Positions 25,403 through 53,774 of a DNA stretch of 64,000 nucleotides are shown in pieces. Below the pieces are notes generated by a model. The model saw nothing but the letters and a program-made list of their open reading frames with translations, made no database searches and was not told the DNA's origin. The DNA lies in contig CAYTGV010000001.1 of NCBI GenBank assembly GCA_964437495.1, forward strand, positions 28,552 through 92,551. Direction: 5' to 3'. Source of the stretch: an uncultured Planctomycetia bacterium (lineage in GTDB: Bacteria > Omnitrophota > Gorgyraeia > B26-G9). Position numbers and translations under genes: made by a program. Position 1 is the first letter of the stretch. Each line of letters starts with the position of its first letter.

Positions 25403-25410
25403 AATTTAAT

Positions 25411-29613: not shown

Positions 29614-29615
29614 TT

Positions 29616-31242: not shown

Positions 31243-31255
31243 TTTCTCTGCCTTA

Positions 31256-32662: not shown

Positions 32663-32673
32663 CTATAAACTTT

Positions 32674-34017: not shown

Positions 34018-34031
34018 AAAGCTTCCTCTTT

Positions 34032-35603
34032 TTAATGCTTAAAATGTCTAACTCCGGTTACAACCATTGCAATACCGGCTTCTTCTGCGGCCTGAACAAC
34101 CTCCCCATCCCTTATAGACCCGCCGGGTTGAATAATAGCACAAATTCCGACCTTTGCCGCGACTTCTATTGAATCTGCTTTTGGAAAAAAGGCATCACTT
34201 GCCAATACCGTCCCTTGTGTCTTGCCCTGTGCTTTTCTTATAGCAATTATCACACTATCCACTCGACTCATCTGCCCTGCGCCTATACCAACTGTCTTTG
34301 TATCAGATGCTAAGACAATAGCATTTGACCTAACGTGTTTTGCCACTGTCTGCGCAAATAAAAGCGACTTAATCTGCTCCTTTGTTGGTTGGTTGCTGGT
34401 CACAACCTTCAGGCTTTCATCATAGATACTCACATTGTCTTTAGTCTCAACAAGTAAACCTCCGGCTACACGTTTAAAATCCAATTCTCTGCTGAACTCG
34501 TTTGGCTTGATAATTTCATCCGTTTCCATGATCCGCAGGTTTTTCTTTTTTCTGAGTATCTCAAGCGCCGCAGCGGAAAAACCCGGGGCAATAACGCATT
34601 CCACAAAACCGCCGGAAAAAATCGCCTCAGCTGTCATCTGATCGACCTGCCGGTTTAACCCGACAATACTCCCGAATGCAGAAAGGGCATCACAGGCGAG
34701 GGCATCCTTATAGGCCAAAGATAAATTTTCTCCCGCAGAAACCCCGCAGGGATTATTATGTTTGATTATGCTTACAGCCGGCATATTGAAATCTTTAACA
34801 ATATTTAAGGCCGCATCCAGATCCATGATATTATTAAATGACAATTCCTTGCCATGCAGCTGACGGGCTTTAACAATCCCCTGTAAGGCTACTGCTTTTT
34901 CTTTATAAAAAGCAGCCTTTTGATGCGGATTTTCACCATAACGCAATTCCTGCACTTTTTCAAAATCAAGGCTTAGATTTTGCGCTAAGGCCTGTTTTTG
35001 CTGCCCCGGTGATCTTCGGCTACTGAGATAAGCTGCAATGCTTCTATCATATGCGCAGGTTCGATCAAAAACCTCAACTGCAAGTTCCAAGCAGGTTGAT
35101 TTTGAAATCTCTCCCTTATTCTCCTTCATTTCATTCATTACCTGATCATAACGCTGCGGATTACATATAACAGCAACGCTTCTGGAATTTTTAGCAGCAG
35201 AGCGCAGCATTGAGGGACCGCCTATATCAATATTTTCTATTGCCTCATCAACAGTTGTCTTAGGATCAGCAATCGTCTTTTCAAATGGATACAGATTTAC
35301 GATCACCAAATCAATAAGCTCTAGCCCAAACGTTTTAACCTGCTCACAATGCTCTTTATTATCACGCAATGCCAACAATGCACCATGAATTTTGGGATGT
35401 AATGTTTTCACTCGACCATTAAGCATTTCATCGCTATTGGTTAACTCACTGACCAGTCTAACCGGCACTCCAAGCTCACGAATAAATTTCGCCGTGCCGC
35501 CAGTTGAAACAATCTCAATCCCATACTCATGTAAAAATTTTACAATTTTCTCCAAACCGCTCTTATCTGATACGCTAATTAAAGCCCTTCTAATCTTAAC
35601 CAC
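34032..35603 (-). CDS. purH: Bifunctional AICAR transformylase / IMP cyclohydrolase
   Basis: MVKIRRALISVSDKSGLEKIVKFLHEYGIEIVSTGGTAKFI (MGS-like N-terminus); 523 aa. Confidence 0.9.
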   Translation of the reverse strand: MVKIRRALISVSDKSGLEKIVKFLHEYGIEIVSTGGTAKFIRELGVPVRLVSELTNSDEMLNGRVKTLHPKIHGALLALRDNKEHCEQVKTFGLELIDLVIVNLYPFEKTIADPKTTVDEAIENIDIGGPSMLRSAAKNSRSVAVICNPQRYDQVMNEMKENKGEISKSTCLELAVEVFDRTCAYDRSIAAYLSSRRSPGQQKQALAQNLSLDFEKVQELRYGENPHQKAAFYKEKAVALQGIVKARQLHGKELSFNNIMDLDAALNIVKDFNMPAVSIIKHNNPCGVSAGENLSLAYKDALACDALSAFGSIVGLNRQVDQMTAEAIFSGGFVECVIAPGFSAAALEILRKKKNLRIMETDEIIKPNEFSRELDFKRVAGGLLVETKDNVSIYDESLKVVTSNQPTKEQIKSLLFAQTVAKHVRSNAIVLASDTKTVGIGAGQMSRVDSVIIAIRKAQGKTQGTVLASDAFFPKADSIEVAAKVGICAIIQPGGSIRDGEVVQAAEEAGIAMVVTGVRHFKH

Positions 35604-35623
35604 TTTTTTCTCCTTAAAGTTTA

Positions 35624-36622
35624 CTACTTAACAAAAACCTTCTTTGATTGAAAATCAGGCATATAGGCATCACTGCTTTTTAACGCTTGTATCCAGCACT
35701 GTTCAAAACCGATTTTTTCTACATACTCAACTAACTCATTATAAAAAACACTATCAATTCTCTTATTTAACTCATCTATTTCACTCGCCTGATAACAGGG
35801 AGCATACTGACTCATCAGGCTAAGACCAATATTGCTTCCAATATCATTCTTTAAAAAATCAAGCACTTCAAAACTGCCGGACAAATTCCCCGGCAATACT
35901 AAATGTCTTATAAGCAGCCCTCTATAAGCACAACCATCAGAATCTTGAGCAAAATCACCCACCTGATTATACATGATCTTAATTGTCCGCTTTGCCGTAC
36001 TCACATAATTCGTGATACCCGAATATCGCAAAGCTATAGAATCATCAAAATATTTCAAATCAGGCATATAGATATCAACGATTCCATCCAATAATTCCAA
36101 GGCTGTTTTGCTCTCATAAGCATTTGTATTATATAAAATCGGCAGGCAAAGTCCCTGCTGCTTAGCCAAATAAATCGCCTCGATAATCTGCGGCAGAAAG
36201 TGTGTCGGCGACACCAGATCAATATTCTGCGCTCCCTGTTTCTGCAATTTTAGCATTATCGAGGCTAACTGCCCAGGACTAAATTCATCTTTTATCTGCT
36301 TTTGCCTGGAGATCTGAAAATTCTGGCAATAAACGCATTTAAAGTTGCAATGGCTAAAAAAAATAGCACCAGCCCCGCCTTTATCAGCAAACGGAGGTTC
36401 TTCACCTTTATGAATCCCCCAATAAGCCACTTCGACATTTTCCCCTGCCTGGCAAAAACCCAGTTCTGCTATGCTTCTGTTAACCGAACATATATGTTCA
36501 CATAAGCAACAATCATTGAGTACCGTCTTCGCCTGTTCTATCTTTTGCAAAAAAACATTCTTATCAAGACCTATATAACTTGCCTGAATGCCCATATTTA
36601 ATTCTTTTTTTGAGCTCCGCAT
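35624..36622 (-). CDS. Radical SAM enzyme, PFL-activase-like; AmmeMemoRadiSam-type N-terminal Cys cluster
   Basis: CLCEHICSVNRSIAELGFC followed by CNFKCVYCQN (a CxxxCxxC motif). No AMMECR1 or Memo gene in the window. Confidence 0.65.
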   Translation of the reverse strand: MRSSKKELNMGIQASYIGLDKNVFLQKIEQAKTVLNDCCLCEHICSVNRSIAELGFCQAGENVEVAYWGIHKGEEPPFADKGGAGAIFFSHCNFKCVYCQNFQISRQKQIKDEFSPGQLASIMLKLQKQGAQNIDLVSPTHFLPQIIEAIYLAKQQGLCLPILYNTNAYESKTALELLDGIVDIYMPDLKYFDDSIALRYSGITNYVSTAKRTIKIMYNQVGDFAQDSDGCAYRGLLIRHLVLPGNLSGSFEVLDFLKNDIGSNIGLSLMSQYAPCYQASEIDELNKRIDSVFYNELVEYVEKIGFEQCWIQALKSSDAYMPDFQSKKVFVK

Positions 36623-38097
36623 ATATCCTTAACCAGTTGTTTCGCTTCTTTCTTATTTTGAATTATCTTAAGCGCCTGCGCCTCTTCTACTTCTTTCAGG
36701 AGCTTCCCGATTAAAGGTGAAGGCTTTAAGTCCAGTAATTTTATTATTTCATTTCCATCTAGCAATCGTGGCCTTGCTTGATTCTTAGCCGCATTTTTAA
36801 ATAATGCAATTATCATGTTAACTAGTTCATCTTCTAAAAAAATAAAACTCTTTTTACGGCTCAAAACACCCTGCATCGCATTGCGGTCGGCAATAGTCAA
36901 GAGCAAGATCATTATAGCATTATCAGCCGTATCCCGGAAAAATCTAAATTTCGCTTTATTGCTGGGAACATAGTTTACAATCTGCCCTGCACGTAAATGA
37001 TACCGCACAAGACTTTTAAGTACACCAACCTCTTTAGCTGAAAGTTTCAGTCTTTGGCCAATATCCTTGACTATATTCGCACCCTCTTTTTCATGTCCAT
37101 AAAAATGTATTTTCCCATCAACCCCCGTAAATCTTGTTGCCGGTTTTCCAATATCATGTAAAATACAAGCTAGTTTCAACAGCCATAAACGCGAATGTGC
37201 CCCGGATATCTTTTCATTTAAGTAAATATGTGTAAGACGCGAATATTTTTTATAGATCTTCTTATCCAATATCCTTAAAAGTTTCTCCAGCTCAGCCAAG
37301 GTCTGAAGTGAATGATCCCATGCATCCAAATGGTGAAAGCCGCCCTGGTCAAGCCCGATCAGACTTATTGTCTCGGGGAGAATCACCGCTAAAACCCCAA
37401 GCCTGTTCATCTCAACAATATATTTAAAAGAGTTCTCACTGGAAAAAATTTTCACCAGCTCTTCACAAATCCGTTCTGGTGAAGTCATTTTTAACCGGTA
37501 AACACTCTTTTTAGCAAGCTCCTTTGATCTTTCATCAAAATCGAAACCAAACGTAGCACAGAAAGTGAATCCTCTTAATATTCGCAAAGGATCACTGATA
37601 AAGTTACGCTCATATGTCAATCGAACACATTTATTTTTAATATCCCGTAATGCCGAAAAATGATCTAAAAAAGCCTTTTTCACAGGATTTCTCATCAGCG
37701 CATGAAGATCAAGGCAAAGTGTATTTATAGTAAAATCTCGCCGCCTAAGGTCTTCTTTAATATTTATTCCTTTAAAATTACTAAAGTCAAGTTCACAGGG
37801 ATTGCCTTTGCTTTTACAAATCACTCTCGCCGTTGAACCAGAGCGATCAAAAATAAAGAATGAAGCTCCCAGCTTTTTTGCTACCCGTTTGCCAAGTAAC
37901 AAAGCTTTGTGACTTACAGCAAAATCCCAATCAAATTTTTTATATAATCTTTTGCTTAAAAACAGATTGCGTAAAGCCCCGCCGACAAGATAAACATTTA
38001 CATTAAGCTCTAAAGCAATAGACTCTATGAGCTTCAGTATCATGTTTTGCTTTAACGCTTTTAATCTAGATGCTGTGATCCTTGTAGTTTTAGCCAT
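36598..38097 (-). CDS. cca: CCA-adding tRNA nucleotidyltransferase / poly(A) polymerase family with HD domain
   Basis: Polymerase-beta head (LVGGALRNLFL...) and an HD motif (ACILHDIGK). Confidence 0.75.
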   Translation of the reverse strand: MAKTTRITASRLKALKQNMILKLIESIALELNVNVYLVGGALRNLFLSKRLYKKFDWDFAVSHKALLLGKRVAKKLGASFFIFDRSGSTARVICKSKGNPCELDFSNFKGINIKEDLRRRDFTINTLCLDLHALMRNPVKKAFLDHFSALRDIKNKCVRLTYERNFISDPLRILRGFTFCATFGFDFDERSKELAKKSVYRLKMTSPERICEELVKIFSSENSFKYIVEMNRLGVLAVILPETISLIGLDQGGFHHLDAWDHSLQTLAELEKLLRILDKKIYKKYSRLTHIYLNEKISGAHSRLWLLKLACILHDIGKPATRFTGVDGKIHFYGHEKEGANIVKDIGQRLKLSAKEVGVLKSLVRYHLRAGQIVNYVPSNKAKFRFFRDTADNAIMILLLTIADRNAMQGVLSRKKSFIFLEDELVNMIIALFKNAAKNQARPRLLDGNEIIKLLDLKPSPLIGKLLKEVEEAQALKIIQNKKEAKQLVKDICGAQKKN

Positions 38098-38494
38098 TTA
38101 AGAATTGTAGTTTTTTAAACACTTCTTCTTCAACAAAAATCGGCGCTTGTGTACGCAAAGCAAGCGCAATACTATCACTTGGACGCGCATCGATATTTAT
38201 AACCCTTTTATCAGCAGTGCGCAAAAATAGCTGTGCATAAAAAGTGTTTCCCTCCAGTTTATTTATAATAACACTTTGAATCTGTGCTCCCATCTGATCA
38301 AGAATATTTTTTAGTAAATCATGCGTTAGCGGACGAGGCGGCCTAATATTACTTACTTTCATTTTAATTGCCGCCGCCTCTGCCACTCCAATAATTATCG
38401 GTATCTGCCTCTGGCCATCCTTCTCTTTTAGAATAATTATTTGATCATGCTTATTCTCATGCATAATAATTTTATAAAGGCTTACGCTTACCAT
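38090..38494 (-). CDS. Bifunctional-nuclease-domain (DUF151) protein
   Basis: 134 aa; ...[23 protein letters not shown]...RPLTHDL... is the DUF151/BFN pattern. Confidence 0.6.
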
Positions 38495-38922
38495 TGGGGC
38501 TCCTTCCCGATTTTAGAACAAAAATAGTCTTTAAGTATTTTTTTGTGATCAAAAGCTATATCCACCGGCAGATTTTCCAGACTGAAAACTACGGCATTTT
38601 TTGCGTCACTACCAGCACACAGATCCCCCCTGCCAACAGCAGTGAAAACAACTGATATTGTATGCCCTCTCGGGTCACGCTCTGGATCAGAATAAGCATG
38701 AAATTGCTTCAGATCGTAAACAGCCAAATTAGTTTCTTCCTTTGCTTCTCGGATTGCTGCTGTTTCCAGACTTTCCTTATAATCGACAAATCCTCCGGGG
38801 ATCGCCCATCCATAGGGAGAATTCTTTCTTTCAACAAGAATAACTCCGTTTCCGCATTCAATAATAATATCTACAGTCGGCAATGGATTTCTATTTTTCA
38901 ACATAAAACACTCTAGCCTCAA
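38488..38922 (-). CDS. NUDIX hydrolase
   Basis: Nudix box [24 protein letters not shown]. Confidence 0.8.
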
Positions 38923-38925
38923 ACA

Positions 38926-39570
38926 TCAAGTCACCAGGCCAATTGCCCGGAAAAATATATCCACACTATTCGGATCAGGTATAAGCATAAAATTTCCGTT
39001 AAGCTGCTGATTATCTGTAGCAAAAGAAGTATTAATGCTTATGCCCTCATTTGATTTCATGGTATTCTTAATAAAATCAGCAAACTCATCATCCCCAAAA
39101 CTTACCGCGGGAATACCGCAATTAGTCTGCAAATTAAACATAGAATCAACCGCAGAAAAATAAGTATTTGCAATAATACTTACAATCTCACCGAAAATAC
39201 ACTTTTGGTCCTCCATGGACAGACAGTTAACATCAGTAGAGTCTAGTCCCTCACCATTAACAAATTTATTCATCAGATCCAAGGCATCATTTTTTGAGAA
39301 TATGATCAAAGTTTCCGTGAAATCAGATATCCCCTCAACAGTAAGATATGCTACTACCATCATACTTGTGTCATTTGAGACTAGACGTGATTTATAAAAA
39401 TCACTCATATCAGGCAAAGAAATATCAATTTTTTCTCCGGATATTTCTCCGATAGCTTTTGCTACATGACTAATGCCGATATTGGCAAGTTCCTTCAGCG
39501 CAGAGCTCTTTAATTCATCAAACTGGCTAACACACTCCATTTCATCTAACCCCTTTTTCTCTTCATCCAT
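38926..39570 (-). CDS. CheC/CheX-family chemotaxis phosphatase-like protein
   Basis: ELANIGISHVAKAIGEISG matches the CheC E..N-IG..-AA-ALS motif. Confidence 0.55.
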   Translation of the reverse strand: MDEEKKGLDEMECVSQFDELKSSALKELANIGISHVAKAIGEISGEKIDISLPDMSDFYKSRLVSNDTSMMVVAYLTVEGISDFTETLIIFSKNDALDLMNKFVNGEGLDSTDVNCLSMEDQKCIFGEIVSIIANTYFSAVDSMFNLQTNCGIPAVSFGDDEFADFIKNTMKSNEGISINTSFATDNQQLNGNFMLIPDPNSVDIFFRAIGLVT

Positions 39571-39935
39571 CTGGTAAACATCCCCTTAGATCTAATATCA
39601 TTTCTTACATTCAGAAGATCCTGATCAATGTTCATATAATCAAAATCATCATACCCTAGATTAACCGCTTTTTTAAGCGCCTCAATCGCTTCGTTTATAT
39701 TTGCCGTTAAAGAATAACTGCAAGCAAGGTTATAATATACAATAGCATCATCCGGCCTAAGCGTGCTAAGACGCTTATCAATAACCAGTCCTCTATCGTA
39801 ATCTCCGGCTTTCGTATAGGCCTCAGCCAGAGGAATAAGCACATCTACAAAATCAACATTTTCTTTGATAAGCTTTTCGAAAAATTCTATTTCAAAATCC
39901 ATTATATTTTTATCGCTTTCGCTATTTTTCTTCAA
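39546..39935 (-). CDS. TPR-repeat protein
   Basis: 129 aa with TPR-like A..Y..LA..Y repeats. Confidence 0.5.
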   Translation of the reverse strand: MKKNSESDKNIMDFEIEFFEKLIKENVDFVDVLIPLAEAYTKAGDYDRGLVIDKRLSTLRPDDAIVYYNLACSYSLTANINEAIEALKKAVNLGYDDFDYMNIDQDLLNVRNDIRSKGMFTRWMKRKRG

Positions 39936-39947
39936 TTTCTTGCTCCC

Positions 39948-41309
39948 TTAAAAATCCGTTTCTTTAACTTTAAGTTTTCTACTCAGTTCTCTTGTCAGTT
40001 TTTTTAGACCGGGGCTTCGAATTACCGGGTAAACTTTTTCTGCCTTTAATTTCTTATAAGCTGCAGGCAGATCGTCGATCTGTCTTTTTACAAAGCTTCT
40101 GACCTGTGCCATCTTCGGCTGCGGCCTTAATAATCTGCCCTTTTCAATCATTTTCAACAAAAGCGGTTCACCTTTTTGCCGCTCAGTTTCTAAAGCCAGA
40201 ATATCTTTCATGAAATTACCCTTCCTATCCCTTAGGCGATAGATCTTTTTTCTACCCGGATAAGTAGCCTTATTTGAACTTAATTTCATTGTTGGGCAAA
40301 ATTTAGCTTTCCCATTATTAATCTCGCTTAGCTTATAGACAATATCACAATATGGCGCATCTGATGAAACCCCCATATTTGTTCCTACACCAAAACTGTC
40401 AATCGAAGCTTTAGCCCTTACTAGTTTTTCAATCTTATGCTCATCTAAATTACCGCTTGCCAGTATCTTTACATAGGCAAAACCATGCTTATTCAGCAAT
40501 GCCCTGATCTTTTTACTCTCTTTTACCAGATCTCCGCTATCTAAACGTACTCCAAGCAATTGAAACCCTTTTTTTTCAAGTTCTCTCGCAACTATTAATG
40601 CATTATTTATCCCCTGGCGATAACTATATGTATCCAGCAACAGCACTGACTCTTTAGGAAAAGTCTCTGTATATGCACGAAAACTCTCAAGTTCACTGTC
40701 AAAAGACATTACAAAAGAATGCGCCATTGTTCCTGCTAACTTAATGCCCAAAATCTTTCCAGCCAAAACATTTGAGGTTCCGCTACAACCTGCGATATAA
40801 CTGGCTTTGGCGACCTGCAGACTTGCAGCCGGCCCCTGAATTCTTCGCAGCGAAAAATCAAAAACAGGCCGCCCTCCTGCTGCAATAACAACCCTTGCCG
40901 CTTTAGAAGCAATTGCAGTCTGAATATTAATTGTGTTGAGAAGATACGCTTCAACGAGCTGTGCCTGAGCTAAAGGAGCAGTGATTCTCATTATAGGCTC
41001 TTGCGGAAAAATCAAAGTCCCCTCTCTGAGAGCCCAAACATCCCCGCTAAATTTAAGCCGGCTTAAAAATCTAAAGAAATCACTTTCAAAATTGTATTGT
41101 TTTAAATAAGCAATATCATCTTTTGTGAACTGGAAATTTTTCAAATATAAAAGAGCATCATTAATTCCGCAAGCAACCAAAAAAGACCTGTCTTTCGGAA
41201 GATTACGGATAAACAAATCAAATGTTGCCTCTGCCTGCGGCAAGAACCGCTTATATCCATTAGCCATTGTCAGAGCATAAAAATCCAGGATTAGGGCAGT
41301 TTTTCTCAT
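39948..41309 (-). CDS. pncB: Nicotinate phosphoribosyltransferase
   Basis: 453 aa; N-terminal LDFYALTMANGY motif and overall NAPRTase layout. Confidence 0.7.
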   Translation of the reverse strand: MRKTALILDFYALTMANGYKRFLPQAEATFDLFIRNLPKDRSFLVACGINDALLYLKNFQFTKDDIAYLKQYNFESDFFRFLSRLKFSGDVWALREGTLIFPQEPIMRITAPLAQAQLVEAYLLNTINIQTAIASKAARVVIAAGGRPVFDFSLRRIQGPAASLQVAKASYIAGCSGTSNVLAGKILGIKLAGTMAHSFVMSFDSELESFRAYTETFPKESVLLLDTYSYRQGINNALIVARELEKKGFQLLGVRLDSGDLVKESKKIRALLNKHGFAYVKILASGNLDEHKIEKLVRAKASIDSFGVGTNMGVSSDAPYCDIVYKLSEINNGKAKFCPTMKLSSNKATYPGRKKIYRLRDRKGNFMKDILALETERQKGEPLLLKMIEKGRLLRPQPKMAQVRSFVKRQIDDLPAAYKKLKAEKVYPVIRSPGLKKLTRELSRKLKVKETDF

Positions 41310-41310
41310 A

Positions 41311-41985
41311 TTACCTCAATCCGAGCAAGAAATACTCTCCTGCCCCGATTAATAAAAGGCCGAATATTTTCTTTATGCGAATCATCCACATGCCTGATTT
41401 TGGCATCTTTTTAAGCAATCCGACAAATGCACCGAGTATTAATAAAGGCAGACCTAATCCCAGTGCATATGTAAACAACAATGTTGTTCCTAAAAACAAA
41501 TCCCCCTGCGAAGCTACATAAGTAAGTATTCCGCCTAAAACCGGTGTTGTACATGGCCCGAGAACTAAACCGGAAACTGCACCTAATAAAAAGGCACCTC
41601 CTATACTTGTTGTAGCTTTCGCTTTATTTGGCTTAAAGAAAGTGATCTGAGGGAAATGAAAAACATCAAGCATGAACAGCCCCATAAAAATAAATACATT
41701 TCCCACAAATACACTAAGCCAAAAATTATTCTGAAAGGCACCAAACAAAGAGCCGCTAAGGGCAGCCACTGCGCCCAAGACAGAGTAAACAAGAGCAAGA
41801 CCTAAAACATAGCTTAAAGAGCGGATAAAACCCTCTTTTTTAGTTTTTATCTCCGCACCACCCATATAACCAACAATAACCGGCAGTATCGGATAGATGC
41901 ATGGGGTAAAACAAATCACAATCCCTGATACAAATACAATGAAATATGTTAAAAAAGAAATATTCTCTAAAGAAATCTGCTGCAT
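41311..41985 (-). CDS. ccdA: Cytochrome c biogenesis thiol-disulfide transporter CcdA (DsbD core)
   Basis: 224 aa, 6 TM, with CFTPCIYPILP in TM1. Confidence 0.85.
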   Translation of the reverse strand: MQQISLENISFLTYFIVFVSGIVICFTPCIYPILPVIVGYMGGAEIKTKKEGFIRSLSYVLGLALVYSVLGAVAALSGSLFGAFQNNFWLSVFVGNVFIFMGLFMLDVFHFPQITFFKPNKAKATTSIGGAFLLGAVSGLVLGPCTTPVLGGILTYVASQGDLFLGTTLLFTYALGLGLPLLILGAFVGLLKKMPKSGMWMIRIKKIFGLLLIGAGEYFLLGLR

Positions 41986-42009
41986 CTGTCCTCCTTTTCA
42001 GGATTCGAT

Positions 42010-42690
42010 TTATCGCTTCCTATTGCGTAAAAAAGAAGCAAACACAAATCCCCCTGTGAAACCACCTATATACGCCCACCAGGCTACCTTAACCAGGCCT
42101 TGCCTTGAACCCGGCAAAGTAAAAAATCCATTTAAGAACTGGATAAGAAACCATATACCTAAAAAGAAATATACCGGCATCTCCGCCACAGTCCAAAAAA
42201 TAAACACCGAAAACAAAATTATTATTTTTGCCCCAGAAAAAACAACAAATACGCTCCAGGGACACCAGAAATACATCCGCTTGCCCCCAAAGCAGGCACA
42301 TTAGAATGAATATTTAAATATATGCGTAAAATTTCCAACAAGACCACACAAAATATAAAAGATTAAAAATTTAAAGTGCCCTAATTTATCTTCGGCATTA
42401 TCTCCCAATATCCACAAATACCACATATTCCTCAGTCAATGAAGCCAGCCGGCATGCAGAAAAAGTGAACTTATCAAAGATATTATTCCGGCAATAGCCT
42501 GCGATAATGTCCAGGCCCGCATATTTAAAAAAGCCTCAGGAACTACCGCAAATCTAGAAATCACTTCTTTAAGTTACGATCCAAGCAAAATTTCCTTTAA
42601 AAATATATATATATGCGATTATCAGCAAAATAGTTACCAGCGCCAACCTTCTTGCCTTAGCCTTATCGCGCAAAGGTATCAATATGAAAC
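42010..42690 (-). pseudogene. Decayed rhomboid-family intramembrane protease gene (frameshift plus in-frame TGA and TAA)
   Basis: One frame from 42573 to 42010 reads ...SLFLHAGWLH-*(TGA 42436..42438)-LRNMWYLWILGDNAEDKLGHFKFLIFYILCGLVGNF...-*(TAA 42301..42303)-...VFSGAKIII...VAWWAYIGGFTGGFVF. It carries the rhomboid H..N, GxSG-like and AHxxG motifs. The TM1-like piece RRLALVTILLIIAYIYIF sits upstream in another frame. Track ORF 42010..42276 is the C-terminal fragment. Confidence 0.55.
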
Positions 42691-43348
42691 TCCTTACTAA
42701 TATTTAGCTTAGAATAATATTTTAACAAATTGCTAGATATTCTGCAACACAATTAACTTTTTATAATTAATCTGTTTTTTTAAAGACCCGTCAAAATAGA
42801 AAAATGCTGTAACCTATTAATAATAAAATTGTTATGAATTCAAAAAAGCCTTTATTTTTAAACCCTGGCTTTACTTATTTAATAAAACTCTATTTCTACA
42901 TAAAAAAAAGGAGCTTTTAATACTTACTCTTAAACAAATCCTTGTATGCCTACAAGATCTATGGATCACGACATTAAAACTGTTGATTTTAGAAAATCCA
43001 CATTCAAAAACACAAAAATAAGCTTAAATTAAGAGATCATAAAGCTGCTTGGACAAAAATTCAGCATCAAAAGAGTTCTAACCGCAATTTTTTCAGCCAT
43101 GGGCAAAAGTGTACAATATATAAATAAAGTTCCCCGCGCATTAAAATTAATGAAAAACAGAAATATAAATCGCCAAGGAAATGGGATATTATAGAATCTT
43201 CACTGTATCACCTCAATATAGAGAATAAGGTCTATGCCTTATTAATGGCAAGAAATGCAGGCCATTTACAAAAAGCATCAGTATTAAAGCCCCATAACTA
43301 TGTTTTTAACATAATATACAACAAGACATCTGCCGCCAGAAACTTAGT

Positions 43349-44845
43349 CTAGTTTGCATTCCCCGCACCATAATCGTGAAAATACTCCATTATTATTGCC
43401 GCAATATTTTCGGCTATTATCCGATATCCATGCTTTGTACAATGCCTGTCTTCTTCTGAGACAAAGTAATATTTATAAGGCCGATGCCTTAAGAGCTGAA
43501 CAAATCTCTCTTCATGCCGAATAATCTCAATCTTATACCTGAAAGCCACTTCCATTATTTCAGATGAAACCCCATCAGGATATCCCGAAAAGAAAAGCCT
43601 TATATTGTTACGCTCACAAGACTCTACCATTTCTTTTAAATTAGCAGACAAAATTTCAGAAACATTGCTTTCTTTCATAAGAACATTCGCGAAATATAAA
43701 TTTGCTATTTTAAAAATACTGTTCCTGCCTCGAAGTTTATCCTGAAAGTAATCACGCCTTAATTTTGCGTTCTTGTCTACCATTTCTATAGCTAACTCAA
43801 TACAATCTCTACTTTTCGGATCCAGCTTCAAGGCCTTCAGATAATAAGCCCTGGATTCTATAAAAAAATTATCCATATAAAGGTCACCTGCCATACGAAT
43901 ATACGCCTGAGATAAAAATTTTTTAGCCATATTATTTTTTGGAAATTTTAATAAGAATTTTTCGTAAAATAAAACAGTTTTTTCAATAATATCCATTCTC
44001 ATAAAGACATCCTCCAGTTCTTGATGCCAGATTCGAGCCTCAGGATTCTTATTCAAAGCAACCGTTAAACGATTTAACGCTTTAGCATATTCTCTGTTAA
44101 GCTTATAACAACGAATTAATTCAAGTACGCTCAGATCATCATTGCCATCGATCATTATTGCTTTATAATAAAATCGTTTTGCCAATCCATAATAACCAAA
44201 GTCTCTATATATATTTGCGTAACGTATTAAGATAGGAACAGTTTGGACTTGGGCCAGCTTTAACCGGGCGAAATGATTATATTTTTCTTTCGAATTGATT
44301 TGTGCACTCTTCAATTTTAAGTTTTGCAAAATCACAGAAAAAAACTTAGAGATTCTAAGCCTTCCCATAAGAAACTGAAACAGTTTTCTATCTAATCTGA
44401 TATTACTATCATCAAAATTCCAGGTATCATTTCCGCCGCACATAATAATCACTGCCTCGGGCTTAAGATCAGAGACCGCTTTTTTAAGCTTTTTAAGAAC
44501 CTGGGTAGAATTGCTGCCGGGAACTCCCAAATTAATAATATTGAACTTTTTCCCATTTTTTTGTTGATTTAATATCTCCTGCATCTGCACAGGATAGCTA
44601 AATTTGGCTTTTGCTCCAATTCCGTAAGTAAACGAATCGCCAAAACAAAGAATTTTTATTGCTTGATATTGGGCTTCCTGGCCTTTTGCTCTATAAATGT
44701 GCTGCATAAAATAACTGCACACAGACAGAACCGTTTCCATGCTCAGAAGCGCAATACTGATTCCAAGAACGATGAGCAATATTTTTAAACGCAATTTTAT
44801 TGATTTTTTCTTATTCTTCATTTCGGGAATTTTTCCAGTATTCAC
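43349..44845 (-). CDS. Membrane-anchored SGNH/GDSL-hydrolase-like protein with TPR repeats
   Basis: FGDSFTYG (GDS block) and IIMCGGNDTWNF (GGND block) with TPRs in the middle; 498 aa. Confidence 0.6.
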   Translation of the reverse strand: MNTGKIPEMKNKKKSIKLRLKILLIVLGISIALLSMETVLSVCSYFMQHIYRAKGQEAQYQAIKILCFGDSFTYGIGAKAKFSYPVQMQEILNQQKNGKKFNIINLGVPGSNSTQVLKKLKKAVSDLKPEAVIIMCGGNDTWNFDDSNIRLDRKLFQFLMGRLRISKFFSVILQNLKLKSAQINSKEKYNHFARLKLAQVQTVPILIRYANIYRDFGYYGLAKRFYYKAIMIDGNDDLSVLELIRCYKLNREYAKALNRLTVALNKNPEARIWHQELEDVFMRMDIIEKTVLFYEKFLLKFPKNNMAKKFLSQAYIRMAGDLYMDNFFIESRAYYLKALKLDPKSRDCIELAIEMVDKNAKLRRDYFQDKLRGRNSIFKIANLYFANVLMKESNVSEILSANLKEMVESCERNNIRLFFSGYPDGVSSEIMEVAFRYKIEIIRHEERFVQLLRHRPYKYYFVSEEDRHCTKHGYRIIAENIAAIIMEYFHDYGAGNAN

Positions 44846-45455
44846 AGTATTTATTTATAACACATTCTTTGCATCTGGGTTTTCGCGAAATACAAATTTC
44901 ACGGCCATGAGCAATGAGTAAATGATTTATTGCCCCCCAATCCCTGCGCACAAAAAGATCCATAAGATCTTTCTCTATCTTCACCGGATTGTTATTTTGC
45001 GTTAAGCCTAGCCTTTGAGCAAGACGCCGCACATGTGTATCCACAGCAATTCCTTCATTTTTCGAAAAAGCATTATATAAAATAACATTTGCGGATTTTC
45101 TGGCAATACCCGGAAGGCTAACTAAATCAGCCATATTCTCCGGAATATGTCCTTTAAACTTGTCTCTTAACATAATAGCTACTGCAATAATATTTTTTGC
45201 TTTATTGCGAAAGAATCCTACAGAACGGATATCCTGTTCTAATATTTCAACTTTAGCATTTGCCCAATCAGATAGAAAGCGATATTTTTGAAACAAAGAG
45301 TCTGTGACAATATTAACGCGCCTGTCAGTACACTGTGCAGAAAGCATCGTGGCGACAAGAAGCTCAAAATTATTTGAAAACCTTAAAGCAATTTTAGCCT
45401 CAGGGTATTTTTTTTTAAGTACTTTGATCAATTTTGCTTTTTTACTTCGATACAC
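44811..45455 (-). CDS. nth: Endonuclease III
   Basis: HhH-GPD motif and a C-terminal 4Fe-4S Cys cluster CISRKPRCKECVINKYC. Confidence 0.9.
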   Translation of the reverse strand: MYRSKKAKLIKVLKKKYPEAKIALRFSNNFELLVATMLSAQCTDRRVNIVTDSLFQKYRFLSDWANAKVEILEQDIRSVGFFRNKAKNIIAVAIMLRDKFKGHIPENMADLVSLPGIARKSANVILYNAFSKNEGIAVDTHVRRLAQRLGLTQNNNPVKIEKDLMDLFVRRDWGAINHLLIAHGREICISRKPRCKECVINKYCEYWKNSRNEE

Positions 45456-45521
45456 GTAGAATCACCTTTTTTAAAAATTATTCAATATTATTGATATTGT
45501 ACCAAAATTTACAAAAAATAT

Positions 45522-45550
45522 TTGCATTAATTTATTTTTGTGCTTATAAT
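45522..45550 (+). promoter_or_regulatory. Sigma70-like promoter of the ferredoxin gene
   Basis: TTGCAT-17 nt-TATAAT; AAGGAGGA lies 4 nt before the ATG at 45581. Confidence 0.45.
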
Positions 45551-45580
45551 AAAATTAATCATGAACTTAAGGAGGATAGC

Positions 45581-45769
45581 ATGAAAGCAATTATAGACAC
45601 AGAAGCTTGTGTAGGATGTGGATTATGCGCTAATATGTGCGCAGAGGTATACCAGATGGAAGACGACAAAGCAATTGTTATCGGCAATTCCATTCCAGAG
45701 GAACTCTTGGATTCAGCAAAAGAAGCAGCCACAAGCTGCCCTGTAGAAGCAATAAAAATAGAGGGTTAA
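45581..45769 (+). CDS. 4Fe-4S ferredoxin (small monocluster type)
   Basis: MKAIIDTEACVGCGLCANMCAEVYQ...ATSCPVEAIKIEG, 62 aa; internal start within track ORF 45434..45769. Confidence 0.8.
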   Translation: MKAIIDTEACVGCGLCANMCAEVYQMEDDKAIVIGNSIPEELLDSAKEAATSCPVEAIKIEG

Positions 45770-45790
45770 TTTTTTTAACCCTCTATTTTA
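45761..45790 (+). terminator. Hairpin plus T-run after the ferredoxin gene
   Basis: gagggttaa-ttttt-ttaaccctc followed by tatttta. Confidence 0.5.
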
Positions 45791-45830
45791 TAAATACCCT
45801 GATCTCTTGATTTATAATAACTCTTTAAAT

Positions 45831-46637
45831 CTAATATTTTAGGCCAATTAAATATTCCAAATCATCCCATGGTTTACGACTCCCTTGGATAGCCACGATA
45901 AATTCCTTATTCCCCTTGCTGAATGCACCAAGAAAACAGTGTTTTGCCGCTTGAGTATAGCCTGTCTTTCCAATAAGATTATTGGTTGTACGCCAAAGAA
46001 ACTTATTATGATTGCGTAATTTAATTACTTTACCGTCACTGCCGGATATACTGGCATACTTCTTCCCCAATATTTTAGTCAATGCCGGATATTCAAGACA
46101 TTTCTTCATAAATAAAGCCAGGTCATAAGCAGTAGAATACTGTCGTTTTTTATGTTCAGGCAATCCTGTGGCATTGAGGAAAAAGCTGTTTTTCGCTCCC
46201 CATGATTTTGCCTGTTTATTCATTAATAATGAGAACTTAAACTCAGTTTCCGCCATAGCCTCAGCCAAAACAACCCCGGCATCATTAGCCGAACTCATCA
46301 AAAAACACAGAAGCAGATCCTTAACCTTATATTTTTTCTTTTCGCTTAAATACACCTTACTCGGAGCTATCCCCGCAGCCCTTTTACTGATAATTAAACT
46401 CCTTTTAAAATCCAGATTATCAGCGGCCATAACTGCAGTCAGCACTTTTACCGTACTTGCCGCAGGCATCCTTAAAGAGGAGTTTTTTTCAAACAGAACA
46501 GCTCCGCTATGTGCATCCATAATAATAGCAGATCTTGCCGTAAGTCCTGCACTTTGCTTAGAAAGCCCTACCCTTGCAAAAAACTGGCCCATAATAATTA
46601 CGGCTAAAAAGCATATTATATATTTAGTGAATTTCAT
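45831..46637 (-). CDS. D-alanyl-D-alanine carboxypeptidase (S11 penicillin-binding protein)
   Basis: Signal peptide, SxxK motif (ASTVK) and SxN-like motif; 268 aa. Confidence 0.8.
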   Translation of the reverse strand: MKFTKYIICFLAVIIMGQFFARVGLSKQSAGLTARSAIIMDAHSGAVLFEKNSSLRMPAASTVKVLTAVMAADNLDFKRSLIISKRAAGIAPSKVYLSEKKKYKVKDLLLCFLMSSANDAGVVLAEAMAETEFKFSLLMNKQAKSWGAKNSFFLNATGLPEHKKRQYSTAYDLALFMKKCLEYPALTKILGKKYASISGSDGKVIKLRNHNKFLWRTTNNLIGKTGYTQAAKHCFLGAFSKGNKEFIVAIQGSRKPWDDLEYLIGLKY

Positions 46638-46638
46638 T

Positions 46639-47058
46639 TCATTTTCCTAAAAAAGTTAGGACAATCTTTCTGTCTCTTACTCGAGTATCGAATTCTGCCA
46701 AAACAACCTGCTGCCAGGTTCCCAAAAGCAGTTTCCCGTCATTAAAAGGTACAATCATCCCGGATCCCTGAAGCGCTGCCCGAACATGGCTAAAGCCATT
46801 GGCATCATTCCAGGTCTCATTATGCAAATAGTGTTTTTCACTTGGCGCAATCCGTTCATACAAATCCCTCATGTCTGAGATCATGCCTGATTCATACTCA
46901 AAAGATGTTATTGCCGCAGTTGATCCGACAACAAACACATTCATCAAGCCTTCGCTAAGAAATGACTGCTGCAAAGCCTCCTGAAGATCACTGGTAATAT
47001 CAATTAAATCTCCGGCACCCTTTGTTTTATGCTTTAGAATCTGCGTTATAATTTCCAT
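46639..47058 (-). CDS. YjbQ/UPF0047 family protein
   Basis: 139 aa; ...GLMNVFVVGSTAAITS...NGFSHVRAAL...LLLGTWQQVVLAEFD... is conserved UPF0047 sequence. Confidence 0.7.
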   Translation of the reverse strand: MEIITQILKHKTKGAGDLIDITSDLQEALQQSFLSEGLMNVFVVGSTAAITSFEYESGMISDMRDLYERIAPSEKHYLHNETWNDANGFSHVRAALQGSGMIVPFNDGKLLLGTWQQVVLAEFDTRVRDRKIVLTFLGK

Positions 47059-47121
47059 AGTACAATTCTATCCCCAACAACTTGATCATGAAATTTTATG
47101 TTTTGTCATTAATAATATTCA

Positions 47122-47150
47122 TTGACGAAAATTGTTTATCAAGTTATAAT
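47122..47150 (+). promoter_or_regulatory. Sigma70 promoter of the pyrE-kdsB operon
   Basis: TTGACG-17 nt-TATAAT. Confidence 0.5.
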
Positions 47151-47196
47151 TTTTATAAATATTTTAACATAGATTTATCTTAACTAGGAGAAAAAA

Positions 47197-47754
47197 GTGA
47201 ACAAGAAAATATCTAAGCAAAAAAAGCAACTTTTTACCATTCTCAAAAAAAATTCATTTAAACGCAAACGCGTCATTCTCTCCAGCGGGAAAGCCAGTAA
47301 TTTTTACTTTGACGGAAGAATAAGCTCTCTTATAAGCTCAGGCGCTTATCTTATTGCAGAGATACTTCTGGATATGATAAAATATGATAAAATTGACGCG
47401 ATTGGTGGACTTACACTCGGAGCTGATCCTATAATCGGAGCAACAGTTGCCATAAGTTTTGGGAAAAGCAGGCCGATTAATGGTTTCATTGTAAGAAAAG
47501 ATGAAAAAAAACACGGCATGAAAAGAAAAATTGAAGGGCCGGCGCTGAAGAAATCAAGCAGAGTTGTAATTATCGATGATGTAGTTACAACCGGTTCATC
47601 AACGATTCAAGCTATTAAATCCGTGCAGGAAATCGGATGCAAAATTGTCCGCGTAATCGCAGTAGTTGACAGAAACGAAGGCGCAAAAGAGAATATTGAA
47701 AAATGCAAATGTAAGCTTGAATCGATTTTTACAAAAGCTGACTTCGGAGTTTAA
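47197..47754 (+). CDS. pyrE: Orotate phosphoribosyltransferase
   Basis: PRPP-binding motif VVIIDDVVTTGSS; 185 aa; GTG start. Confidence 0.8.
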   Translation: MNKKISKQKKQLFTILKKNSFKRKRVILSSGKASNFYFDGRISSLISSGAYLIAEILLDMIKYDKIDAIGGLTLGADPIIGATVAISFGKSRPINGFIVRKDEKKHGMKRKIEGPALKKSSRVVIIDDVVTTGSSTIQAIKSVQEIGCKIVRVIAVVDRNEGAKENIEKCKCKLESIFTKADFGV

Positions 47755-47768
47755 CTTAAGGATCTATT

Positions 47769-48512
47769 ATGGATGTTATTGGTATAATACCCGCGCGTTA
47801 TGGTTCAACCAGGCTTGCTGCAAAAGCACTTGCTAACATATTGGGCAAGCCTATGATACAGCATATATATGAAAGAGCCAAGGAAGCTTCTGTCTTAGAT
47901 GAAGTTATTGTGGCTACAGATGATGAAAGGATAAAAAAGGCCGTAGACTCTTTTGGAGGAAAAGCTTTACTTACATCTAAAGAGCACACATCGGGAACAG
48001 AACGGCTTACTGAAGTAGTTTTCGACATGGATGTGAAGGTTATTGTTAATATCCAAGGCGATGAGCCTCTTATTCACCCATCCATGATTAATGATGTTGC
48101 TTATGCCATACTCGAAAATCAAAATATCGTCATGGCAACCCTAAAACAACTTATCACTGATATAAATGAGTTTAATAATCCAAATGTAGTAAAGGTAATC
48201 ACGGATAAAAATAACTTTGCTATTTATTTTTCCAGGTCTCCTCTGCCAAACATATTAAGGAAAAAAGAAGGATTAGATATACCGATTTACAAGCATGTCG
48301 GGATTTATGCTTACACAAAAGACTTTTTACTTACTTTCAAAGGATTGAGATCCTCAAAGCTAGAGCTTGCAGAATCACTGGAGCAGCTAAGAGCAATAGA
48401 GAACGGCTATAAAATAAAAGTGCTGGAAACCAGACACGAAACTATCAGCATAGATACGCAGGAAGATCTCGATAAGGTCATAGACTATCTTAAGAATTCA
48501 ATTAATAGCTAA
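47769..48512 (+). CDS. kdsB: 3-deoxy-manno-octulosonate cytidylyltransferase (CMP-KDO synthetase)
   Basis: MDVIGIIPARYGSTRLAAKALANILGKPMIQHIYERA... is the canonical KdsB N-terminus; its presence implies LPS/KDO. Confidence 0.9.
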   Translation: MDVIGIIPARYGSTRLAAKALANILGKPMIQHIYERAKEASVLDEVIVATDDERIKKAVDSFGGKALLTSKEHTSGTERLTEVVFDMDVKVIVNIQGDEPLIHPSMINDVAYAILENQNIVMATLKQLITDINEFNNPNVVKVITDKNNFAIYFSRSPLPNILRKKEGLDIPIYKHVGIYAYTKDFLLTFKGLRSSKLELAESLEQLRAIENGYKIKVLETRHETISIDTQEDLDKVIDYLKNSINS

Positions 48513-49945
48513 ATAGACTGATTTAGCCACTCTTGCTGTGTCTGCTCAAGAAGCTGTTCTGCTTTCACCTTATCTTCAAGCGGAACATACAGATAATAAC
48601 CGGACGCAATGGTTCGAATCGGCAAGCCCCAGCTAAAATGGGACGGTTTAATCTCATTCATAATGCTTCTGCTTCTAAGACATGCCTTCTTCACCTCTGC
48701 CTCAGTTTCATCAATGGCAATATCTAAAAGGGTCCATTGTTTTGAAGGAAGGCTGCAGATTTTACGGAAAAATTTCAGTTGTCTTTTTATGTCATGGTAT
48801 ACTCCGACCAGAACTATCAAACCAAAAGCACCAAAAATACCTGCACTCATAAAGGAAATCTTAAGGATCAACGGTAAAGCAACTGGAAGGTAATAAATCG
48901 CTACAAATAATATCACGCTTAATGTTATCGTTTTAGTAATGGAAGCATTCAAATAATCTATTATCTTTTTATTTTGGCTTTCCTTTATTTTGCACTTATG
49001 CGCCAAAATGAGCTCATAAAATCTTCTGGGCCGATAGATTACTTTTGCGTAAACAAGCGTAAAGAAAATTATAGCAATTAAAACCATTGCAAAAGAAGCA
49101 AGATCAAACGAAACCTCAAAATAAGAGAATACTGTCTCTGTAATAATCAAAGGCCATACCCCCATCCATACCGGCCTTATTGAAATATGAAAATGCTCAT
49201 TATTTTCAGTACACATATCTATTCTATTTACAATTCTAGTAACTTTTCTGGCAAAATAAATAAAAGCTATTGTTATAACACTGAAAATAAACAAATGTTT
49301 CAAGCCTATCAGATTCCTGCCCCAGAATACAACCAATTGATCCCCGGCAAAAATAAATCTTAATATCACTTCTACGGCAAAAATCATACCCACTCCATTA
49401 CCAAAACCATATTTATTTATAACCTGCGTAAGCATTATAAAAATAAGCGTCATTACACAAAGAGAAAGAATGGTAGTTATCTGAAAAGGAAGTCCGGCAA
49501 ATTTCAGCAGGTTAATATCCGGGAATTGATTCAAAAGCTGCAAATCCATACTTGCCTGATATCCGGAAAACACACTTAAAATCAGGGCAATAATTACAGT
49601 CCCATACATCATTTTAGAACGCCCATGTTGTTCATGAAAAAACTTTCTATTTAACCCAGGCACAAGAAAAGCTATTATTTGAAGCATTACACAGGCATTA
49701 ATAAAAGGCATTATCCCTAAGGAACTTACCGATACATTACGCAGTTTTCCAATATGCACAAGAGCCATCAAATCCATTAAGCCCCCGCCTTGCGTCCTAA
49801 TATGCTGCTTATAGAGCTCAGCCAATGCGCTTAAATCAACCCCTGGCAGAGGCAAAAAATAAAGCACACGTACAAGCACAAGAACAGCTATGGTAACTAA
49901 AATCCTCTTCCATATGCCACATTCATCACTTTTTTTTATCGTCAT
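48509..49945 (-). CDS. Divergent SecY-family translocon protein with a C-terminal cytoplasmic DUF2007-like domain
   Basis: Aligns with the SecY N-terminal half: ...LPLPGVDLSALAELYKQ...SLGIMPFINACVMLQIIAFLVPGL...GRSKMMYGT... and ...GFGNGVGMIFA.... The last ~90 aa (WTLLDIAIDETEAEVKKACLRS...YYLYVPLEDKVKAEQLLEQ) match the DUF2007 pattern. Not in a ribosomal-protein (spc) operon context. Confidence 0.6.
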   Translation of the reverse strand: MTIKKSDECGIWKRILVTIAVLVLVRVLYFLPLPGVDLSALAELYKQHIRTQGGGLMDLMALVHIGKLRNVSVSSLGIMPFINACVMLQIIAFLVPGLNRKFFHEQHGRSKMMYGTVIIALILSVFSGYQASMDLQLLNQFPDINLLKFAGLPFQITTILSLCVMTLIFIMLTQVINKYGFGNGVGMIFAVEVILRFIFAGDQLVVFWGRNLIGLKHLFIFSVITIAFIYFARKVTRIVNRIDMCTENNEHFHISIRPVWMGVWPLIITETVFSYFEVSFDLASFAMVLIAIIFFTLVYAKVIYRPRRFYELILAHKCKIKESQNKKIIDYLNASITKTITLSVILFVAIYYLPVALPLILKISFMSAGIFGAFGLIVLVGVYHDIKRQLKFFRKICSLPSKQWTLLDIAIDETEAEVKKACLRSRSIMNEIKPSHFSWGLPIRTIASGYYLYVPLEDKVKAEQLLEQTQQEWLNQSI

Positions 49946-49969
49946 CTTATCCCACCCTTCAAAAGAAGA

Positions 49970-50815
49970 TTAAAATTCTCCGTTTACTATCTGGGCATCG
50001 CCCGCTAATTTCTTCACCCCTTGAATCCTGCGTTTTAACTTATTGTCTCTGGGATAAAGTTCTAAAATTTTCTTATAATAATGAATGCTTTGTTCATAAT
50101 CCTTTATCCTTTCAAAAGAAGCCGCGAGTAGTGTCAGAACATGCCTTTTTTCGATATTATTGACCTCCCTTGGCAGAAAAAGATAAGCCTGTCTGAAATA
50201 GGCTATGGACTTGACATAATCATTATTCATAATAAAGTAAATATCACCTATTTGCGAATAAATTTCCCAGGCTTTGGGGTTATATCTCAATCCATTCTTC
50301 AAGAATCTAATTGCCTTATCAGACTTACCCAGGCGTATGCCCAGCCAATAACCACCCACAATATATGCCTTAATATAATATGGATCCGCTAATACAGCAA
50401 GTTCAAACCAAGGCATTATCTCGGCACTTTTGGCATTATTAAGATGTTGAACCGGCTTGTAAGAAATAGCCTTGTTTAAGCGTGAAAAAATATCCTGATC
50501 ATCATTCACAGGCTGCCAAATTTCATTATTCTGCTTAGAGACATGCTCGTGGGGTACTTCACCTTCTAGACAAGAATGTCCTGCATTGTGCTTTGGATGC
50601 GAAGTCCCGCCGTGAAAATATCTATCTGCTTTTAAATACAAAATTGCCGCTATACTGCTGCGCAGCTGTCCAAACATCTTATAGAAAATATCGTTTTGAC
50701 AAATAAGGGAATTATTATTTGCCATAAAAAAAACATCAAGGTGTGCTGAACTACAAACTAAAATCAATACCACGATGATAACAATTAAGCTAGAATGGAA
50801 TTTGCCTAAAGCCAT
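49970..50815 (-). CDS. Membrane-anchored TPR-repeat protein
   Basis: 281 aa with an N-terminal hydrophobic anchor and TPR repeats; last gene of the ABC transporter operon. Confidence 0.5.
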   Translation of the reverse strand: MALGKFHSSLIVIIVVLILVCSSAHLDVFFMANNNSLICQNDIFYKMFGQLRSSIAAILYLKADRYFHGGTSHPKHNAGHSCLEGEVPHEHVSKQNNEIWQPVNDDQDIFSRLNKAISYKPVQHLNNAKSAEIMPWFELAVLADPYYIKAYIVGGYWLGIRLGKSDKAIRFLKNGLRYNPKAWEIYSQIGDIYFIMNNDYVKSIAYFRQAYLFLPREVNNIEKRHVLTLLAASFERIKDYEQSIHYYKKILELYPRDNKLKRRIQGVKKLAGDAQIVNGEF

Positions 50816-51564
50816 CTCTTTTGAAACCTCTTAAAAACAAAAAAAAGCAAGCAAGCCACATAAAGAGTCGCATACCCAAATATAGACAACATAACCCACA
50901 GCGGTAATGGACTCCATTCATATATAAGTCGATGGCGCAAATCAAAAAATTCAAAATGAGGCAAGAGATAATAAGCAATTTCCCCCAGAATAGGCAGGCG
51001 GTAAAATGCTTCTCGCATATTAGCGCCAAACCAACTCATTAAAAAGAAAATAGTATATGACAAAGTAACTGTAGTGGAAAATGTACAAAATACGGAAAGG
51101 CATATAGTCATTGCATTCAAAACAGCAAGCATAATAATACCACCCATAAATACCTGTGTATAAAGCAGCCAATCTCCTTGTCCTTGTTTAAGTAAGCTTA
51201 TAACCGTAAACAGCAAAAAAAATAAACCGAAACTAATCCAGCTTATAAACAAACTTCCCAAAAATTTACCGGCAATCACATGAACTCTCTTTATCGGTTT
51301 TGCCAAAAGAGGATATATTGTCTTTCCGCTTATCTCTTCTAACATAAGTCTTGCCGCATTAGGTACTGCAATAATTATGGAAAATAAAAATACAAGCCCC
51401 AGTCCTATTTCATTCATATATCTATAAATATGCTTAATTTCAAAAAAAGCGGCATTTGCTAGATAGACCATTAAAATAAGCAGCATTGTAATAAACACAT
51501 ATATATCTTTTTTACGGAATATTTCACGCATTATATTTATTGCGATCAGTTTAACTATCAACAT
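50806..51564 (-). CDS. ABC-2-type transporter permease
   Basis: 252 aa, about 6 TM; translationally coupled to the ATPase. Confidence 0.55.
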   Translation of the reverse strand: MLIVKLIAINIMREIFRKKDIYVFITMLLILMVYLANAAFFEIKHIYRYMNEIGLGLVFLFSIIIAVPNAARLMLEEISGKTIYPLLAKPIKRVHVIAGKFLGSLFISWISFGLFFLLFTVISLLKQGQGDWLLYTQVFMGGIIMLAVLNAMTICLSVFCTFSTTVTLSYTIFFLMSWFGANMREAFYRLPILGEIAYYLLPHFEFFDLRHRLIYEWSPLPLWVMLSIFGYATLYVACLLFFVFKRFQKRWL

Positions 51565-52304: not shown

Positions 52305-52334
52305 GAGCTTATTATACCAAAAAAAAATTGATTA

Positions 52335-53705: not shown

Positions 53706-53745
53706 TATAGAATAAAATAGTCATTAACCGCTACAAATAAAAGAC

Positions 53746-53774
53746 TTGACATAAAGTGGCACTTGTGATATTAT
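53746..53774 (+). promoter_or_regulatory. Near-consensus sigma70 promoter of small ORF 53823..54059
   Basis: TTGACA-17 nt-TATTAT; AAGGAGGT lies 9 nt before the ATG. Confidence 0.5.

Follow-up and report, generated by a model that had tools for sequence, protein, structure and literature searches.

Within the window, the whole 64,000-nucleotide stretch of DNA from an uncultured Omnitrophota bacterium analysed here, the minus strand from 42682 to 42010 holds five short open reading frames (ORFs) distributed over three frames, the longest of 88 aa. The genes on either side are long and unbroken, with neighbours of up to 1012 aa. In a three-frame translation of the minus strand, the N-terminal block that begins MIPLRD and includes TM1 lies in frame 2, the LFLHAGWLH*LRNMWYLWILGDNAEDKLGH block in frame 0, the ALGASGCISGVPGAYLL block in frame 1 and the VAWWAYIGGFTGG block again in frame 0. 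Immediately downstream is an intact ccdA gene of the DsbD_TM family (41311..41985, minus strand; PF02683, E = 2e-46), which retains its own Shine-Dalgarno sequence. Upstream, 666 bp (42683..43348) contain no ORFs.

The interrupted region had been interpreted, in a sequence-only reading, as a decaying rhomboid protease gene, and this identification holds. After frame correction, the reconstructed protein matches the rhomboid family PF01694 with 94.4 bits (cut-off 22.6; E = 1e-26) over profile positions 5-141 of 143, and frame 0 by itself reaches E = 2e-19. The absence of a significant rhomboid match for the reconstruction, which had been named as the outcome that would count against the identification, did not occur. 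A database search with the reconstruction returned 4725 homologues (best E = 3e-93, 69% identity, 225 aa), the top ones being annotated as 'rhomboid family intramembrane serine protease' and originating from Candidatus Omnitrophota MAGs. Identity to the nearest intact orthologues ranges over 69-74%. Based on the Pfam profile, the homologues and DNA alignment, the remnant of this rhomboid intramembrane serine protease gene occupies 42010..42682 on the minus strand. Its two ends are the TTG codon at which the ancestral gene started (42680-42682) and the place of its stop codon (42010-42012), and it measures 673 nt compared with 678 nt in intact orthologues. As had also been noted from the sequence, the TM1 segment (42569..42682) lies in a frame other than that of the remaining rhomboid blocks. 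No second rhomboid paralogue was found within the 64-kb window.

The sequence-only reading had proposed a comparison with relatives, and in each of the four related Omnitrophota lineages examined an intact rhomboid gene of 224-225 aa lies at the syntenic position. These orthologues are P0001 (L004/L012; isolate RS_8_62 and GCA_030627865.1), P0002 (GCA_054039915.1), P0008 (GCA_054040495.1) and P0006 (bin S2.42). Like the window copy, all of them lie upstream of ccdA and have the same TTG start and Shine-Dalgarno sequence, and they are 74-79% identical to it in nucleotides and 68-74% identical in amino acids after frame correction. Unlike the window copy, they are unbroken and keep every invariant residue. 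The rhomboid DNA of the window aligns with the orthologues end to end, and the distance from the rhomboid stop to the ccdA start is 24 nt in the window and 23-25 nt in the relatives (L004-L013). The shared gene order is GDSL, an ARMT1-like gene in some of the lineages, rhomboid, ccdA, NAPRTase, TPR, CheC and NUDIX. At L008 and L010 it reads endonuclease III, GDSL lipase, ARMT1-like/DUF89, rhomboid, ccdA (DsbD_TM), NAPRTase, TPR, CheC-like and NUDIX, and the window matches this order except that the 666 bp without ORFs take the place of the ARMT1-like gene. Both the profile match and the syntenic orthology assign the remnant to PF01694 by descent. When genome contigs were searched with CcdA, two Omnitrophota loci were recovered, both with an intact rhomboid gene. 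The same search of metagenome contigs yielded distant relatives only (≤48% identity), none of them informative, and an exact DNA pattern across the pseudogene/ccdA junction had 0 hits in metagenome contigs.

The DNA upstream of the rhomboid remnant had been described from the sequence as a gap of about 650 bp of AT-rich non-coding DNA. Its length, its lack of ORFs and its base composition (GC 0.287, compared with 0.376 for the window) agree with that description, but the stretch also holds the remnant of a second gene. Based on tblastn, nucleotide alignments and synteny, this is an ARMT1-like/DUF89 gene (PF01937, a label that rests on the precomputed Pfam hit of the intact relatives at L008 and L010) located at 42920..43330 on the plus strand, divergent from the rhomboid gene. 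With the intact L008 and L010 proteins (286 and 284 aa) as tblastn queries, aa 232-274 match 43154-43285 (E = 1e-8 when the gap is searched, E = 9e-6 when the whole window is), and aa 1-79 match approximately 42920-43155, on the expected plus strand. In the nucleotide alignments the start codon is changed from ATG to ATA, the gene is recognisable in the 5' ~175 nt and again in ~115 nt close to the 3' end, and in the middle ~75 nt stand in place of ~530 nt; several stops interrupt the translation. Orientation and place are those of the gene at L008 and L010, the two relatives in which it is intact, and no intact ORF is left in the window. The 666-bp AT-rich gap is explained by this decay, in which the start codon was lost and a large internal segment was deleted. 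Judged by these alignments, the gap is a second, more degraded pseudogene and not plain intergenic DNA. Rfam searches recovered three tRNAs only in the whole window at the gathering threshold, and nothing over 41900-43400 at E ≤ 1, so the gap contains no known RNA; repeats over 41900-43400 are short and at chance level, with no mobile-element ends. A functional coupling of the rhomboid and ARMT1-like losses was considered and rejected, because L004/L012 and L013 are without a detectable ARMT1-like gene and yet have an intact rhomboid gene.

The lesions of the rhomboid remnant were called from a DNA alignment to the three best intact orthologues, read codon by codon. Five of them are disabling, three being deletions (-2, -2 and -1) and two nonsense substitutions, all given here on the minus strand. 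The first is a 2-bp deletion (AA) between 42615 and 42614, at codons 23/24 in TM1 and at the edge of an (AT)n run, which shifts the frame and removes the codon of Asn24, a residue conserved at 99% among 120 homologues. It is followed by a GAA>TAA nonsense substitution at 42574-42576 (codon 37, GAA or GAT in the orthologues) and by a TTA>TGA substitution at 42436-42438 (codon 83, where the orthologues have TTA or TTG for Leu83). A second 2-bp deletion (AC), between 42316 and 42315, shifts the frame at codon 124, and a 1-bp deletion (C) lies between 42243 and 42242, at codon 149. With these three frameshifting deletions and two in-frame stops, no uninterrupted ORF extends from TM1 to TM6. The TTG start codon, the Shine-Dalgarno sequence and the stop position of the remnant coincide with those of the orthologues.

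This inventory revises the damage that the sequence-only reading had listed, namely one frameshift and two in-frame stops, a TGA at 42436..42438 and a TAA at 42301..42303. The TGA is a true nonsense mutation relative to the three orthologues. The TAA at 42301-42303 is out of frame: the ancestral codons here are CAT TCT AAT (H S N), and the stop came to be exposed only through the 2-bp deletion at 42316|42315. The real second nonsense codon is the TAA at 42574..42576, which had been overlooked, and the single frameshift has to be replaced by three.

Changes also affect the catalytic motifs. In TM6, the catalytic His has been replaced by Tyr (CAT>TAT, 42070-42072, minus strand; local reading AWWAYIGG), in a column that is His in 120 of 120 homologues, and the block previously taken for an intact AHxxGxxxG signature actually reads AYIGGFTGG. 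The H-x-x-x-N motif of TM2 reads H*LRN in the remnant: the His and the Asn are kept, the stop at codon 83 falls inside the motif, and a Gly conserved at 90% has become Arg. The GASG motif of TM4 (42276..42287, minus strand), with the catalytic Ser codon AGC at 42279-42281, is still there in frame 1, isolated in its own frame between the deletions at codons 124 and 149. The proposal that all of the motifs share one frame is thus correct for HxxxN and the TM6 block and incorrect for GASG. Since no frame joins the catalytic Ser to the TM6 position, and since the catalytic His is a Tyr, the reading frames show that a functional protease could not be made from the remnant. They show likewise that translation from the TTG start, which is retained together with its Shine-Dalgarno sequence, could yield no more than a TM1 peptide of 37 residues.

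The pattern of substitution shows relaxed constraint in branch length, at codon positions 1 and 2, at invariant residues and in dN/dS, which is approximately doubled. The reconstruction deviates at three columns that are 100% invariant in the 120 homologues (F93L, P151S and H206Y) and at three more that are conserved at 90% or more. In 12 close intact homologues there are none at columns of the ≥98% level and between 0 and 3 at those of the 90% level. From three-taxon branch lengths derived from pairwise identities, the rhomboid branch of the window measures 18.1 amino-acid differences per 100 and that of L004 7.5 (~2.4-fold), and the CcdA branches of the same two are equal (7.35 and 6.95). 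Unique changes, counted at sites identical in the three intact orthologues, number 21, 14 and 23 at codon positions 1, 2 and 3 in the window and 6, 7 and 16 in L004. Based on a rough branch split of pairwise Nei-Gojobori dN and dS values, the window branch has a dN/dS of ~0.25, and the branches of L004 and L008 have ~0.13-0.14; dS between the lineages is 0.55-0.86, near saturation, so both the ratios and any timing are rough. Under a simple two-phase assumption, and with the same near-saturated dS, the gene would have evolved under constraint along most of the branch and neutrally along roughly its last tenth. In our view purifying selection acted on it during the greater part of the time that has passed since the split from the nearest sequenced relative; constraint was then lost, and the three small deletions, the two nonsense mutations and the substitutions at invariant positions accumulated.

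The region directly upstream of the remnant is more conserved than the coding sequence. The 82 nt before the rhomboid start (42683..42764, minus strand), which include the Shine-Dalgarno sequence AAGGAG at 42690-42695, are 87-89% identical to L008 and L010, compared with 74-79% for the coding sequence and 54-56% for the remaining DNA of this intergenic stretch, and they are probably a retained promoter or 5' leader. Downstream, the CcdA protein of the window is 80-86% identical to its orthologues. The 82-nt region is conserved probably because it still serves the intact ccdA-NAPRTase genes, and the intact ccdA downstream is the likely reason for its retention. The remnant would then still be transcribed as the 5' part of a ccdA-NAPRTase transcription unit, and it may not yet have been deleted because the upstream region presumably still drives transcription through it into ccdA-NAPRTase. 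Scans for consensus promoters and terminators gave counts not above those of shuffled sequences, and because the promoter scan is at chance level no specific promoter is named.

The conservation of these 82 nt, of the Shine-Dalgarno sequence and of the TTG start could also be taken to mean that selection maintains the remnant in a new role, either as a small membrane peptide, encoded by the 37-aa TM1 ORF (42569..42682, minus strand) or by the 88-aa C-terminal ORF (42010..42276, minus strand), or as a regulatory leader of ccdA. The 88-aa ORF is annotated by gene callers and called as a gene in three assemblies, and the remnant is near full length (673 of 678 nt) at a locus where its ARMT1-like neighbour is down by ~450 bp net. 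We nevertheless consider re-use improbable. The first 11 codons of the 88-aa ORF lie outside the ancestral frame, inspection by eye found no Shine-Dalgarno-like sequence before its start, its product has no Pfam hit and no homologous short-ORF family was found. In addition, substitutions are distributed across the whole remnant and over all codon positions, and the upstream conservation is explained more simply as service to the intact downstream genes.

To a still smaller degree do we credit the view that the gene is intact in the organism and that its interruptions are sequencing or assembly errors of the contig. Two of the deletions do lie in or beside low-complexity sequence, one at the (AT)n run of 42603-42615 and one at the T-run of 42236-42242, and indel errors can arise at such sites. 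However, the ccdA protein just downstream was found on at least eight public contigs, and three of these (L001-L003: ENA ERZ27317826, JGI 3300031645 and Logan SRR8862235), assembled independently and coming from different archives, carry every lesion. They are 99.99-100% identical to the window over 1.7-12.7 kb, and the sole difference in the 12,675 bases compared between the window and L001, at position 42790, is outside the rhomboid remnant. The three assemblies represent essentially the same population, and as such they exclude assembly error and are not evidence of fixation across divergent strains. Lesions that are identical in three independent assemblies are not sequencing errors, and this explanation was rejected accordingly. 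Further against it, two of the lesions are substitutions that create stops, the catalytic His is also substituted, non-synonymous changes are in excess at invariant positions, and the neighbouring genes are unbroken at lengths of up to 1012 aa. The disabling lesions are thus reproducible and stand against intact orthologues. As a separate observation, the contigs L002 (JGI) and L003 (Logan) of this population end at window positions 42793 and 42789; together with the sole SNP at 42790, these ends hint at strain-level structural variation upstream of the rhomboid leader, in the region of the ARMT1-like remnant.

Synthesis of a full-length protein by recoding, whether through programmed frameshifts with stop read-through or through an alternative genetic code, can be set aside: nothing specific favours it beyond the retained Shine-Dalgarno sequence and start codon, it requires three separate frameshifts of two sizes plus read-through of TAA and TGA, its product would still be without the catalytic His and with invariant residues changed, none of these features occurs in any orthologue, and stop-codon reassignment is rejected because TAA, TAG and TGA are all ordinary terminators of long ORFs in the window (23, 12 and 9, respectively, of the 44 ORFs of at least 200 codons).

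We conclude, with high confidence, that the bacterial rhomboid protease gene found upstream of ccdA in related Omnitrophota, whose product has a single domain with six TMs, is represented in the window by a pseudogene at 42010..42682 (minus strand) that is fixed and non-functional. This Omnitrophota species thus does without a rhomboid protease retained by its relatives. Annotations should label the locus as a pseudogene, remove the 88-aa 'hypothetical protein' and enter the neighbouring 'intergenic' stretch as an ARMT1-like remnant. The rhomboid remnant and the adjoining second dead gene are real but ordinary gene loss, and the rhomboid remnant reveals no new mechanism or system.

Gene decay is also apparent elsewhere in the same block of genes. 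In a sister lineage (L004-L007 and L012), in which the rhomboid gene is intact, NAPRTase consists of a 46-aa and a 123-aa fragment, with the N-terminal ~176 aa left, and endonuclease III is cut to a 94-aa fragment; the decayed regions are at 344-628 and 7378-7914 of L004 and are the same in L005, L006, L007 and L012. Both genes are intact in the window. With rhomboid dead in the window and NAPRTase and endonuclease III dead in the sister lineage, different genes of one block have decayed in each lineage. L004 additionally carries three tandem GDSL-lipase/TPR paralogues (474, 405 and 481 aa; 989..5072), a gene that is present as a single copy in the window (43349..44845) and at L008. No ARMT1-like remnant was detectable by tblastn in this region of L004.

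Other features of the window were recorded alongside. A GlcD-like FAD-linked oxidase gene (52335..53705, minus strand) is broken into at least four ORFs in different frames, fragments of which match FAD_binding_4 profile positions 43-103 (53268..53504, minus strand) and 100-138 (52898..53380, minus strand) and FAD-oxidase_C profile positions 114-246 (52335..52778, minus strand). Counting rhomboid, ARMT1-like and GlcD-like, the window has three pseudogenes among ~60 genes. Regulators of flagella and chemotaxis are present in this Omnitrophota genome, namely the overlapping genes fliW (54404..54880, minus strand) and csrA (54187..54432, minus strand) and a CheC-like gene (38926..39570), and the 480 bp from csrA to the broken oxidase (53706..54186) contain no long ORF. 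Of the 64 consecutive 1-kb bins of the window (1..64000), all except one have a negative GC skew, and almost every gene is encoded by the minus strand, which places the window within a single replichore with a strong gene-strand bias.

Omnitrophota are described as a phylum with host-dependent traits whose genomes are reduced, at 0.86-3.2 Mb (PMC10066038), and our literature searches found no description of pseudogenes in this phylum. The loss of rhomboid and the nearby pseudogenes suggest ongoing gene loss in a reduced-genome phylum, to which the rhomboid remnant contributes a small data point. A more far-reaching idea, which we put forward tentatively and regard as possible rather than probable, is that the clade is in active lineage-specific gene loss. 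One ~12-kb syntenic block has lost rhomboid and the ARMT1-like gene in the window lineage and NAPRTase and endonuclease III in the sister lineage, and the window contains the broken GlcD-like oxidase as well. On this view the rhomboid remnant would persist only as a transcribed, promoter-bearing leader of the ccdA operon. If this is true, reductive evolution could be followed and dated stage by stage in these genomes, in a phylum for which host dependence is suspected.

GlpG of Escherichia coli and of Haemophilus influenzae (PDB 2NR9) are bacterial rhomboid intramembrane serine proteases of PF01694 (MEROPS S54). Like the GlpG-type rhomboids, the ancestral gene had six-TM length (225 aa) and a PF01694 match, and its orthologues share the rhomboid blocks, that is H..H-x-x-x-N in TM2, GASG in TM4 and A-H-x-G-G in TM6; among short bacterial rhomboids the ancestral gene is an ordinary one. 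Unlike GlpG, the window copy has no continuous ORF and its catalytic His is a Tyr. The similarity to solved GlpG structures is remote: phmmer with the single reconstructed protein found no match in the PDB, and GlpG was reached only with the orthologue profile, which aligns with TM2-TM4 of the H. influenzae structure, GASG against GLSG (E = 3e-5).

The same profile weakly matches iRhom1 structures. The iRhoms and Derlins are rhomboid pseudoproteases without catalytic dyad residues, which have an intact, conserved ORF under purifying selection. The window copy resembles them in its missing dyad residue. A pseudoprotease of the iRhom/Derlin type was rejected, because without an intact ORF the locus falls outside that class.

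A precedent for the dead gene is MUL_3926 of Mycobacterium ulcerans, a rhomboid pseudogene that has kept its synteny in a lineage undergoing reductive evolution (Kateete et al. 2010, PMC2989971). It differs by a 42-bp insertion and eight SNPs from the intact gene of M. marinum, to which it is still ~96% similar. Like MUL_3926, the window copy is a bacterial rhomboid pseudogene that holds its syntenic position. The window copy differs in being older, with five disabling lesions plus an active-site substitution, and its nearest known intact orthologue is only ~79% identical in DNA.
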